Positions 11,916 to 14,869 of a DNA stretch of 29,380 nt are shown one piece after another (within the stretch, counting starts at the first letter, position 1; every line of letters begins with the position of its first letter). The stretch covers positions 1-29,380 of the forward strand of contig CAZHYK010000002.1 in the NCBI GenBank assembly GCA_964536715.1, written 5' to 3'. The DNA is from Candidatus Woesearchaeota archaeon (GTDB lineage: Archaea; Nanobdellota; Nanobdellia; Pacearchaeales; GW2011-AR1). Under the pieces are notes generated by a model that worked only from the letters and a program-made list of their open reading frames with translations, ran no database searches and was not told where the DNA came from. A program made the translations under genes and the position numbers.

Positions 11916-14869
11916 AAAACAGTACTCACCAACACATTTAGATAGAAATATCAAATGAAATAGTTTCTCACTAAAAGGTTTTAGTTTTAATGTCTAAAAT
12001 TTAAAGTGTGGATCCTACTAAACTGTTAGACGGATAGCTTGGCTTAAATTGCGATGAAGGACGTGGCAAGCTGCGAAAAGCTCTGGCGAGTTGCACGCAA
12101 ACATTGAACCAGAGATTTCCTAATGTGAAACACATTTATTCCGAGAGGAAAGTCTACGCCGGGAATTGAAACATCTTAGTACCGGTAGGAAAAGAAAATA
12201 AATAATTATTCCCCTATTAGCAGCGAGCGAAAAGGGAACAGGGCAAACCGAATCTTTACTTGAAAGAGTGTAAGAGATGTGGTGAAGATTAAGACTAAGT
12301 CAACGAGTTGAAGTTCTCTGGAAAGAGATACCTTAGAGGGTGATAGTCCCGTAAATCAAGTTGATATGTTATACTTCAAAAGAGTAGGGCGTCCCGGATT
12401 GGATGTCTGAATATGGGAGAATTAACTCCTAACCCTAAATATTAATTTAAGTCCGATAGCGTACGAGTACCGCGAGGGAAAGCTGAAAAGTACTCTCACA
12501 AGAGGGTTAAAAGACTTGAAATCTAACAGTTACAAGATTGTTACTGCCTTAAGGGGTTGTAACGTACGTTTGGGAAAACGGACCAGGGAGTTTACTTTTG
12601 TGGCGAGGTTAATTGAATGAAGCCGAAGCGAAAGCGAGTGTGAAAGCGCGCTAGTCACTGATTTAAGACCTGAAGCCAGATGATCTATTCCTGAGCAGGA
12701 CGAAGTTTCTCGAAAGGGAAATGGAGGTCCGAACCGGTGTTGTGTACATGCATTCGGATGACTTGGGATTAGGGGTGAAAAGCCACTCTAATCTGGCGAT
12801 GGCTGGTTCCTATTGAAATATGCCTGGGCATAGCCTTGTATTGTTTGTTGAAGAAGTATAGTACGGATAGGTCCTGCAGAGACATGAGTCTACGGGGAGC
12901 TTTCCAACTCAGAAATTTTCAACTGCGGAATACAAGACACAGCTGTGGTGTGTAAGACACTTCAGCGAGACCTGAACAAAGGAGACTGGAGTTAAGGTCC
13001 CAAAGTATTTGCTAAGTGTATCAAACAGAGTTTTTATTCTGAGACAGTGGGGATGTAGGTCTAGAAGCCGCCATCATTTAAAGAAAGCGTAACAGCTCAC
13101 CCATTGAGAATAAGAGCATGGAAAATGGACGGGGCTCAAGCAAATCACCGATACTCTAGGGGCACTCTGTATAGAGTGTGCCGGTAAATAGGCGTTCTAT
13201 TTGCACAGAAGCTTTTCCGTAAGGAAAGGTGGAGCGAATAGTATTGAAAATCCTGGTGATAGTAGGATCTGATCTCTTTGAGAAAGAAGAGATGTCGAAA
13301 GGGCAAGGTTTCCTTGGCACTATCAATTAACCAAGGGTTAGTCGGTACCTAAGTCATATCTTCACTGAGTATGACGACGGACAGCAGGTTAATATTCCTG
13401 CACTTTTTAATTTTGCTAAGTATACGAGTCGCTTTCGGATAGGCGAAACATCGAGAGATGTAACAAGAAGAAAGAAATGGATTGTAATGAAGAGAAGTTT
13501 AAGAATTCTTGTGAATTTGTTGATTCCAGGAGCCAGTGAAAAGTTTGTATAATAGAAATTAATTAGCCGTACCGAGATCTAGCACTGGTGCCCTAGCTGA
13601 GTAGGCTAAGACATGTAAGACGAAACTAGTTAAGGGAATTCGGCATAAATAGTCCCGTATCTTCGGTAGAAGGGATGTCTATTCTTTTGTATGATTCATT
13701 ATATGGAAGAGTAGATCTCAGTAACAAGGATGGCCTGACTGTTTACCAAAAACATAGCTGAGTGCGAATCCGAAAGGATGTGTATACTCAGTGAAATCTG
13801 CCCAGTGATGGTGTCTAAACCTCCTTTTCAAGGGAGTGAAAGCCCATCAAACGGCGGGGGTAACTATGACCCTCTTAAGGTAGCGTAATGCCTTGTCTTC
13901 TGAATGGAGACGTGCATGAATGGTTTAACAAGGTTGTCACTGTCCCTAACTAGAGTCTTCCGAAACCATTTACCCGTGAACAGACGGGTATCACCTAGTG
14001 GGAAGCGTAGACCTTGTAGACCTTTACTACAACCTGTTGTTGTGATTTTACTAAGGGTGCTTAGAGTAGGTAGGAGCGTCGAAGTCAGACTCTTGGGGCT
14101 GATGGAGCAAAAGTGTAACACTACCCATTTTTAATAAAATCACTTACTTTATGAGGACAGCAATTGGCAGGTAGTTTGGCTGGGGCGGCGCCCTGTCGAA
14201 AAGATAACGATAGGGCCCAAAGATAAACTCATCCAGGTCGGAAATCTGGAGTAGAGTGCAAAAGCAAAAGTTTATCTGACTGTTTTCTAAATAGCACAGA
14301 AAGCAGGAGTGAAAGCTGGGTTTAGCGAACTTCCATAGCTTTTTAATGGGGCTTGGAAATGACAGAAAAGGTACCTCAAGGATAATGGGCTTGTCGCGCC
14401 TGATAGTCCACATTGACGGCGCGGTTTGGCACGTCGCTGTCGGCTCTCCCTAACCTGGTTGTGCAGCAGCAACCAAGGGTGTCGGAGTTCACGCATTAAA
14501 AGGGATCGTTAGCTGGGTTAAGAACGTCGCGAGACAGTTTGTATGATATCTACTAGGTGTGTTATTGTCTGAGCGGAACAGTTTTCTAGTACGAGAGGAA
14601 CGGAAATTGGGTGCCTCTGGTCTATCAGTTGTCATGTGGCAGGCTGAGCAGCTACGCACTATTTCGATAAATGCTGAAAGCATCTAAGCATGAAGCGAAT
14701 CGCAAAACGAGACAATTAAGGCCGTCAAAAAAGATGACGTCGATAGAGATGTGGTGTACGCATGAAGCTCACGCGACATGTTCAGCCAGCATCTACTAAA
14801 AGCCTCAATTATATTCTTATGAATATGATCCACACAATTTATAGAAACTATGTTGGTGAGTATTGTTTT
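11916..14869 (+). other. Long-range pre-23S processing stem
   Basis: 11916-11934 pairs with 14851-14869 (19 bp, one G-U); 11961-11968 with 14843-14850; 12006-12014 GTGTGGATC with 14827-14835 GATCCACAC. Confidence 0.85.
12015..14826 (+). rRNA. rrl: 23S rRNA, no intron; no 5S follows
   Basis: GAATTGAAACATCTTAGTACC, GTACCGCGAGGGAAAG, H69 GGGGGTAACTATGACCCTC, P-loop CTGGGGCGG, sarcin-ricin loop AGTACGAGAGGAAC; about 2.8 kb. Ends approximate. Confidence 0.97.

Follow-up and report, generated by a model that had tools for sequence, protein, structure and literature searches.

The large subunit (LSU, 23S) rRNA gene analysed here carried eight substitutions at conserved positions of the peptidyl transferase centre (PTC). 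Most of the eight states were inherited order-wide, and the gene is therefore no one-off but an extreme case among the naturally divergent archaeal PTCs described recently. The gene lies in a stretch of DNA of 29,380 nucleotides, referred to as a whole as the window, and its host is a mesophilic, uncultured member of the Pacearchaeota (DPANN, class Nanoarchaeia). The cluster was layered and not unique. At the level of the order, C2503, U2576, A2586 and a purine at 2552 were found in 29–33 of 33 genomes, together with a U2065–A2445 pair. The trio U2452/G2453/G2499 made up a genus-level layer which, as a set, was common within the order only to the window and its congener G005, and U2059 and A2519 made up a species-level layer. 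An earlier note on this DNA had read the cluster as a remodelled catalytic centre. That reading did not hold: the catalytic residues were intact and the changes were confined to the drug-contacting second and third shells and the tunnel entrance. Nor was the cluster peculiar to this gene, since four of the eight states were order-wide and all eight positions varied freely across the class.

The rRNA operon and the numbered positions

Rfam analysis revealed an operon in the order SSU–tRNA–LSU:

10,047–11,487, + strand: small subunit (SSU, 16S) rRNA gene of the same operon (RF01959, 1320.3 bits)
11,622–11,692, + strand: spacer tRNA between the SSU and LSU genes (RF00005, 55.7 bits)
12,005–14,819, + strand: full-length LSU (23S) rRNA gene (RF02540, 2177.6 bits, model positions 1–2987)

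The LSU match cleared the RF02540 cut-off of 50 and was the only one in the 524-kb genome assembly, an 81% complete metagenome-assembled genome (MAG) of 64 contigs. Between 13,950 and 14,600, independently assembled contigs of four studies (two DNA runs, two RNA runs) showed zero differences, and the LSU stretch was present in 20 runs from 12 studies. Identical contigs were found in two metatranscriptome runs; such contigs are no proof of transcription, and the genome is not closed. The LSU gene was the sister of that of congener G005 (94% identity), and the habitats of the host were anaerobic digesters, landfill and wastewater. The gene is most probably a working 23S rRNA gene and not a decaying second copy, which the earlier note had also judged unlikely: the match was full length, it was the sole LSU gene in the assembly, and its helices and compensatory pairs were intact.

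Numbering according to E. coli was assigned by RF02540 alignment of 13,850–14,819 and by MAFFT alignment to E. coli rrlH (L031:260-3163). The two numberings agreed, and E. coli positions 2446–2620 were covered without indels. All eight substitutions that the earlier note had called from motifs were recovered at the same coordinates, both by this covariance-model alignment and by MAFFT, and the contigs carried them with zero differences. At all eight sites the base differed from both E. coli and the archaeal Rfam consensus, in which A2059, C2452, A2503, U2552, G2576 and U2586 are in upper case (strongly conserved). The substituted positions, with A2519 and a compensatory pair that had not been listed before, are given below; counts are out of 33 genomes of the order and 47 from the rest of the class, 80 unbiased genomes in all.

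14,008, + strand: U2059 (A in E. coli and the archaeal consensus), species-level; U in 2 of 33 order genomes
14,014, + strand: U2065, half of a C2065–G2445 to U–A compensatory change, order-wide
14,379, + strand: A2445, partner of U2065
14,386–14,387, + strand: U2452 and G2453 (CA in E. coli and most archaea); U2452 in 9 of 33 order genomes, G2453 in 2 of 33 (the window and G005)
14,433, + strand: G2499, the structural partner of 2453; E. coli has C and the class baseline A; G in 3 of 33 order genomes
14,437, + strand: C2503 (A elsewhere), order-wide; C in 32 of 33 order genomes, A in 34 of 47 outside the order
14,453, + strand: A2519 (U in the consensus), species-level; 3 of 33 order genomes
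14,486, + strand: A2552 in the A loop (U elsewhere; conserved 2′-O-methylation site); of 33 order genomes, 27 have A and 6 have G; U in 37 of 47 outside the order
14,510, + strand: U2576 (G elsewhere), order-wide; U in 31 of 33 order genomes, G in 45 of 47 outside the order
14,520, + strand: A2586, order-wide; E. coli has U and the class baseline C; A in 29 of 33 order genomes

Two further candidates, A1918G in H69 and C2032, were odd compared to E. coli only; they agreed with the archaeal Rfam consensus and were rejected as unusual. Two of the eight changes were GC-to-AT, two were AT-to-GC and four were neutral, and AT mutational pressure was rejected since the changes had no AT direction.

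The core around these positions was unchanged:

14,181–14,188, + strand: P-loop (2249–2256), the same as in E. coli
14,381–14,385, + strand: G2447–A2451, including the catalytic A2451 (14,385)
14,439–14,440, + strand: G2505 and U2506, zero changes in the class
14,487–14,490, + strand: G2553–C2556 of the A loop (G2553 at 14,487)
14,517–14,519, + strand: G2583, U2584 and U2585
14,587–14,601, + strand: sarcin-ricin loop (SRL, 2653–2667), canonical archaeal

The alignment confirmed the retention of A2451, G2553, U2585, the P-loop and the SRL that had been read from the motifs, and with G2505, U2506 and A2602 the whole functional core was present. Additionally, G2061–C2063 (A2062 included) and A2450 were canonical. 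Across the 80 class genomes, A2451, G2505, U2506, G2553, U2585, G2061, C2063 and A2450 showed zero parsimony changes.

Turnover and convergence of the substituted states

The window differed from E. coli at 8 of 8 sites, which was the top of the order (range 3–8, mode 5); the mode in the rest of the class was 2. Each of the eight sites showed 5–22 parsimony changes over the 80 class genomes, corresponding to the 33rd–87th percentile of 1230 columns. Position 2059 occurred as A, G, U and C within the order, and congeners G004 and G007 had CA/A at 2452–2453/2499 (L110 is identical to G004, and L153 is G277). The compensatory changes C2065U/G2445A, in 33 of 33 order genomes, and G2454A/C2498U, in G016 and G022, show that structure is under selection. 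Genome reduction alone is insufficient for the pattern, because G099 (probably Nanoarchaeum equitans) was canonical at all eight sites.

The trio U2452/G2453/G2499 was present in four separately supported clades, which represents at least four origins, and AU tests rejected uniting these clades (p 9.5e-8 and 2.9e-37). Aenigmatarchaeota reached 7 of the 8 states independently, and much the same haplotype arose, again independently, in two more families of the Nanoarchaeia. That an rRNA segment had been transferred from Aenigmatarchaeota was rejected because the flank (2441–2520) shared only 67% identity with Aenigmatarchaeota row L136, compared to 92% with a congener. The earlier note had named 2453 and 2499 as partners, which agrees with the C2499–A2453 hydrogen bond in Haloarcula marismortui (PMC4652758) and with the joint recurrence of G2453 and G2499 in at least four lineages.

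The coupling was examined by independent contrasts, which were underpowered. U2452 went with bases other than A at 2453 (median p 0.039), and these in turn with G2499 or U2499 (p 0.065). For G2453 with G2499, 3.6 of 7 pairs changed the same way and 0 the opposite way (p 0.125). Among 172 rows, 7 of the 8 that had U2059 carried U2452/G2453, and a rough post hoc binomial gave p of about 0.001–0.015 for U2059 with the trio. We also considered a model in which 2059 varies freely only where A2503 has been lost; it gained no support (3.0 pairs the same, 1.3 opposite, 10.6 unchanged; median p 0.69), and G2059 occurred in some A2503 rows. Of the two pairs for which co-evolution had been proposed, 2453 and 2499 recurred together; a link between 2059 and 2503 lacked support, and U2059 went with the trio instead. 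No linkage of U2576 with non-A 2503, purine 2552 or A2586 was supported (p 0.25–1).

The repeated origin of the trio, together with the 7 of 8 states in Aenigmatarchaeota, suggests epistatic coupling. A stronger version, which we offer tentatively, is that the PTC shell may exist as a few discrete, epistatically locked designs. One of these (U2059, U2452, G2453, G2499, non-A 2503, U2576 and often purine 2552) would have been reached independently in Pacearchaeota and Aenigmatarchaeota, and partly in two other Nanoarchaeia families. If true, this would imply either that the fitness landscape is rugged and its viable peaks are few, or that a common natural inhibitor selects one and the same solution in DPANN archaea. 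Frequent turnover with convergence is also compatible with recurrent selection.

Two candidate protein correlates were searched for. A full-length U2552 methyltransferase FtsJ/RlmE (PF01728, E < 1e-45) was not found in the 19 order genomes searched. Many families that have U2552 lacked it equally, and genomes of family f104 in which 2552 is A or G possessed it; an origin of purine 2552 through loss of FtsJ/RlmE was rejected, as gene presence showed no clean link to the base. The 2′-O-methylation is independent of base identity. As for co-evolution of uL3 with the trio, the PTC-proximal GPWHP(S/A)RV finger was the same in two congeners with the trio and two without it; differences near this finger were uninterpretable.

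Comparison with known divergent centres

Archaeal PTCs are less conserved than bacterial ones, with some clades diverging and a short uL3 permitting this (10.1101/2024.11.12.623245). The closest parallel is the PTC of Thermoprotei and Methanomethylicia, described from the Pyrobaculum calidifontis ribosome (Nissley et al. 2024). In both cases natural, clade-wide substitutions are found at conserved PTC positions, the catalytic residues are unchanged and the changes fall on known resistance sites; in the window there were several such changes (the eight and 2519), four of them order-wide and three shared with congener G005. The two overlap at 2453 and, in part, in the blocks 2447–2453 and 2500–2504. 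Within these blocks the window was changed at 2452, 2453 and 2503 and canonical at 2447, 2450, 2451, 2500, 2501 and 2504, whereas 5 of its 8 changes (2059, 2499, 2552, 2576 and 2586) fell outside them, and its set of changed sites differs from the published one. For both, the archaeal context (short uL3, flipped 2504) is proposed as permissive. The published case has a known structure and concerns hyperthermophilic Thermoproteota. The window, in contrast, is known from sequence and represents a mesophilic DPANN archaeon outside Thermoprotei and Methanomethylicia; DPANN, 2503 and 2576 are not mentioned in the text of Nissley et al.

A published survey of drug contacts in bacterial rRNA likewise found lineage-specific substitutions, with resistance-type variants widespread in nature and the greatest divergence in small-genome, host-dependent organisms, even within one genus. 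It differs in that it covers no archaea, does not mention 2059, 2503 or 2576 and reports no multi-site convergence. Laboratory alleles (G2576U in staphylococci and enterococci; 2452/2453/2499/2500/2504 in halophilic archaea and mycobacteria) affect the same positions and, for G2576U, make the same base change. The structural logic would be shared as well: 2576 is stacked on G2505, 2499 forms a bond with 2453, and 2452 is paired with 2504 (PMC4652758; PMC11700844). The laboratory alleles comprise one or two mutations each, carry fitness costs and stand in a canonical background, whereas in Pacearchaeota up to eight coexist, fixed in the lineage, on a single-copy gene.

Among cultured methanogens, the Methanomassiliicoccales have C2503 across the order, as do the Pacearchaeota, along with non-canonical 2453/2499 (U/U). 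C2503 was also found in some Thermococci, Altiarchaeota, Micrarchaeia, Iainarchaeum and Undinarchaeota records. Unlike the window, the Methanomassiliicoccales and the other C2503 lineages kept U2552, G2576 and A2059. A literature search found no work combining Pacearchaeota with peptidyl transferase and, going by titles and abstracts, none of the literature on DPANN and peptidyl transferase appears to treat PTC variation. The general phenomenon is already published; what is new here is the layered origin and a near-identical haplotype convergent with Aenigmatarchaeota.

Proposed explanation, rivals and meaning

We consider it probable that the window encodes a layered alternative PTC shell around a frozen first shell, arising from archaeal tolerance and coupled viable sets, with drug insensitivity as a by-product. 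The catalytic first shell would have stayed frozen while the second and third shells, the tunnel entrance and one A-loop base were altered layer by layer. The archaeal shell may owe its tolerance to a short uL3 loop and a flipped 2504, features shown in Pyrobaculum. Within the class, the eight positions turn over like ordinary variable columns. The same coupled sets would reappear because only certain combinations are viable. Such sets presumably rebuild a hydrogen-bonding and stacking network (2452–2504, 2453–2499/2500, 2576 on 2505, and 2059/2061 around 2503) that would hold the invariant residues in position. In favour of tolerance, E. coli ribosomes in vitro accept mutation of A2503 and U2586; against it, U2552 is absent from the flexible A-loop positions (PMC7049736). 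The order-wide purine at 2552 is therefore not explicable by simple tolerance.

Multi-drug insensitivity and altered tunnel sensing, both proposed in the earlier note, are extrapolations from mutants of model organisms. Drug insensitivity is plausible, and weaker binding of PTC and tunnel-entrance inhibitors is likely to be a by-product rather than a demonstrated purpose. Alternatively, the states could be adaptive, selected by natural inhibitors of the PTC or tunnel entrance that neighbours or hosts release in dense anaerobic communities, with a shared agent driving the convergence. We regard this as unlikely, although it would account for several observations. The sites 2452, 2453, 2503 and 2576, which the earlier note gave as resistance sites, are documented as such, as is 2499: G2576U is the main linezolid-resistance mutation and A2503 the Cfr target (PMC11700844), and 2452, 2453, 2499, 2500 and 2504 form a resistance network in the linezolid/anisomycin pocket (PMC4652758; 10.1101/2024.11.12.623245). 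Nissley et al. also raised drug evasion as a possible consequence (10.1101/2024.11.12.623245). The near-same haplotype arose independently in Aenigmatarchaeota and two other Nanoarchaeia families, and the eight sites turned over fast around a frozen core. However, neutral turnover is expected at resistance sites too, because these are by definition mutable yet viable PTC positions. The states also flip to and fro in close relatives such as G004 and G007, U2552 and U2586 are without a documented drug role, and neither an inhibitor nor a producer nor a phenotype is known for these organisms. C2452U and A2453G have specifically arisen in Halobacterium.

With A2503 and A2059 gone from the tunnel entrance, peptide-dependent stalling and regulation might instead be altered or abolished, a reading we find highly improbable. 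Bacterial drug-dependent stalling needs A2503 and A2062, and A2062 was retained in the window gene. Positions 2059, 2503 and 2586 do border the tunnel entrance, and 2059 and 2503 are the neighbours that the earlier note took them for, as the A2059/G2061 pocket surrounds A2503 (PMC11700844). Yet DPANN archaea are not known to have a stalling system, C2503 is normal in Methanomassiliicoccales and some Thermococci, and the four-way variation of 2059 within the order disfavours the role of a precise sensor. Artefact or decay (errors of assembly or binning, chimerism, or a second copy without function) is scarcely credible even for a fragmented MAG in which a second operon could be unassembled, given the agreement of DNA and RNA assemblies, the full-length match with intact pairing, the sister gene in G005 and the same states in dozens of relatives.

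The PTC is taught as almost invariant, and it is difficult to engineer, since E. coli ribosomes are killed by changes at several sites. An entire archaeal order nevertheless carries, on single-copy rRNA, C2503, U2576, A2586 and a purine in place of the universally methylated U2552; one genus adds the coupled 2452/2453/2499 trio, and other DPANN lineages found that trio independently. Such naturally occurring combinations offer ribosome engineers a ready stock of viable PTC designs altered at several sites, and nature has with them run an experiment on epistasis in the most ancient part of the ribosome. Much of archaeal diversity may be insensitive to universal PTC inhibitors, which calls for caution where these drugs serve to tell bacterial activity from archaeal activity in digesters and sediments.

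The LSU gene and its substitutions

The window genome was placed in the order corresponding to Pacearchaeota, within the DPANN class Nanoarchaeia. The following archaeal rRNA operon was found in the window:

10047–11487, +, SSU rRNA gene
11622–11692, +, spacer tRNA between the SSU and LSU genes
12005–14819, +, LSU rRNA gene, matching Rfam RF02540 across the whole model (2177.6 bits)

The LSU gene was the single match in the whole genome (524 kb, 64 contigs, 81% complete). The LSU genes of four relatives (G035, G037, G022 and G030; loci L017, L016, L018 and L019) were 3345–4172 nt long compared to 2815 nt in the window, which implies long insertions or introns within the 23S genes of these Pacearchaeota, some in domain V.

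Positions were numbered from an Rfam alignment of 13850–14819 and a MAFFT alignment with E. coli rrlH (L031:260–3163). The two methods were concordant, with no indels within E. coli 2446–2620, and upheld all eight substitutions that the earlier note had read in the peptidyl-transferase centre (PTC); the covariance-model alignment to archaeal LSU that it had proposed shifted no position. Both alignments gave the first eight rows below; the last two rows were absent from that note.

14008, +, U2059
14386, +, U2452
14387, +, G2453
14433, +, G2499
14437, +, C2503
14486, +, A2552
14510, +, U2576
14520, +, A2586
14453, +, U2519A, an extra change
14014 and 14379, +, compensatory pair U2065-A2445

A2451, G2553, U2585, the P-loop and the SRL were retained, as first claimed, together with G2505, U2506, U2584, A2602, G2061-C2063, G2447 and A2450. 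In the Rfam register, the A-loop stem (helix 92, 14481–14495) had just two Watson-Crick pairs, and both U2548-C2560 and G2551-A2557 were marked non-canonical; the G2551-A2557 closing pair was near-universal in the class (one sampled genome excepted) and was also found in Thermococci.

The 1-kb stretch containing these sites was present in 20 public runs, including six RNA libraries, from 12 studies of wastewater, anaerobic digester, landfill and activated sludge. When contigs from four runs (two DNA, two RNA) of four studies were aligned with 13950–14600, no differing letters and no indels were found. These matching contigs rule out assembly errors and chimeras; one RNA-run contig covered the whole region, although contigs by themselves are no proof of transcription.

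Distribution across the order and class

An unbiased sample of 33 genomes of the order and 47 class genomes outside it was surveyed.

PTC states in the order and in the class outside it
C2503: order 32/33; outside, A in 34/47
U2576: order 31/33; outside, G in 45/47
A2586: order 29/33
Purine at 2552: order 33/33 (27 A, 6 G); outside, U in 37/47
U2065 and A2445: order 33/33; outside, C2065 in 46/47, G2445 in 47/47
U2452: order 9/33
G2499: order 3/33
G2453: order 2/33 (window and congener G005)
U2059: order 2/33

Within the order, position 2059 was A in 19 genomes, G in 11, U in two and C in one. Between three and eight of the eight sites differed from E. coli (mode 5), the window being at the top with eight, compared to a mode of 2 in the class outside the order. 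On the 80-genome tree the eight positions required 5–22 parsimony changes (33rd–87th percentile of 1230 aligned columns) and A2451, G2505, U2506, G2553, U2585, G2061, C2063 and A2450 required none. In Nanoarchaeia the shell of the PTC is like ordinary variable sequence around a frozen core.

Divergent natural PTCs are a known kind (Nissley et al. 2024; Ekemezie et al. 2024). The Pacearchaeota signature of C2503, U2576 and A2586 with a purine throughout the order at 2552, a universally methylated position, is new, as are its layered origin and the independent arrival at a near-identical haplotype in another DPANN phylum. The text of Nissley et al. (10.1101/2024.11.12.623245) contains neither DPANN, 2503 nor 2576. 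In the library searched, no literature linking Pacearchaeota to PTC variation was found, and, judging by titles and abstracts, none naming both DPANN and peptidyl transferase appears to treat it.

A scan for non-A 2503 in one genome per prokaryotic species returned at least 119 loci. Among the matches listed, C2503 was the normal state in all sampled Methanomassiliicoccales, with U2453/U2499 and C or U at 2452, and occurred in some Thermococci, Altiarchaeota, Micrarchaeia, Iainarchaeum, Undinarchaeota and Aenigmatarchaeota records. Methanomassiliicoccales includes gut methanogens in culture and offers a tractable system for testing the role of C2503. A Rhodothermus sp. MAG (L138) carried C2503 in a bacterial-type 23S (G2057, A2058, A2059, C2452, A2453, C2499) and, if not an error, represents an unusual natural case of A2503C among bacteria. 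The archaeal 23S genes of four records with bacterial titles (Candidatus Vogelbacteria, Clostridiales, Eggerthellaceae and 'bacterium'; L120, L105, L159, L206) were placed inside Pacearchaeota, Methanomassiliicoccales and Woesearchaeota; these contigs appear to have been mis-binned in public MAGs. In G483, a family f131 MAG, two LSU fragments (contigs C21 and C22; L070, L071) had unlike states, A2503/G2059/G2586 and U2503/A2059/C2586, reflecting either mixed strains within that bin or rRNA operons that are heterogeneous.

Convergence and probable coupling

Compensatory double changes, order-wide at U2065-A2445 and at A2454-U2498 in G016 and G022, show the structure to be under selection. An IQ-TREE tree built without the focal columns united the window and G005 with 100% support, the remaining genus members having C2452/A2453/A2499. 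The U2452/G2453/G2499 trio was also found in three further separately supported clades (family f128, G498 of family f131, and Aenigmatarchaeota), and AU tests, on groups defined after tree inspection, rejected uniting the trio clades (p = 9.5e-8 and 2.9e-37). An Aenigmatarchaeota single-cell genome (L136) shared seven of the window's eight states. Yet over the non-focal columns in 2441–2520 its identity with the window was just 67%, compared to 92% for a congener, so that the near-identical haplotype is convergence and not transfer of an rRNA segment.

The co-evolution proposed earlier was supported for 2453 with 2499. Independent-pair tests, which are underpowered, gave p = 0.125 for G2453 with G2499 (3.6 pairs concordant, none opposite, of seven) and p = 0.065 for non-A 2453 against G or U at 2499; for U2452 with non-A 2453 the median p was 0.039. 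The proposed link of 2059 with 2503 had no support, the same underpowered test giving p = 0.69 for non-A 2503 against non-A 2059. U2059 instead goes with the trio: U2452/G2453 was present in seven of eight U2059 rows, and U2059 with G2453 gave a rough post hoc p of 0.001–0.015, G2453-only branches making up 12% of tree length. Published contacts give structural reasons for coupling at these positions: C2499 is bonded to A2453 and U2504 is paired with C2452, with U2500 in contact with both (PMC4652758; 10.1101/2024.11.12.623245); G2576 is stacked on G2505, and A2503 lies in a pocket made by A2059 and G2061 (PMC11700844).

A probable alternative PTC shell

The earlier interpretation of a remodelled, drug-insensitive centre is partly supported; the evidence best fits an alternative shell that is inherited and functional. 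Nissley et al. (10.1101/2024.11.12.623245) showed that conservation of PTC positions is lower in archaea than in bacteria, that Thermoprotei and Methanomethylicia differ at 2447–2453 and 2500–2504, and that a shorter archaeal uL3 loop and a flipped 2504 permit such variation, the invariant residues staying in position through alternative hydrogen-bond networks. The positions that are flexible in E. coli in vitro include A2503 and U2586 but not U2552 (PMC7049736). The PTC finger of uL3 was identical in two congeners that have the trio and two that lack it. A search of 19 genomes of the order detected no full-length FtsJ/RlmE, and its presence outside the order does not follow the base at 2552.

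Reduced sensitivity to PTC drugs is a reasonable prediction for this organism, as in model organisms such drugs are weakened by G2576U and by changes at 2452, 2453, 2499 and 2503 (10.1101/2024.11.12.623245; PMC4652758; PMC11700844). Nothing here shows that the states were selected for drug insensitivity; resistance sites are those PTC sites able to mutate with viability kept, and near-neutral turnover would be expected to fall on them as well. In bacteria, drug-binding residues are most divergent in small-genome, host-dependent species (10.1101/2024.10.31.621234), but genome reduction alone is not a sufficient cause, since the smallest genome of the class (G099, locus L043; a single contig of 490,885 bp) retains all eight canonical states. 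G099 is probably Nanoarchaeum equitans. The eight changes have no AT direction, which argues against AT mutational pressure.

The suggestion of altered tunnel sensing found no support. A separate earlier note reads the 16S decoding site (11371–11446) as having A-U in place of G1405-C1496, together with A1499C; if this is true, drug-contact sites diverge in both ribosomal subunits of this organism.
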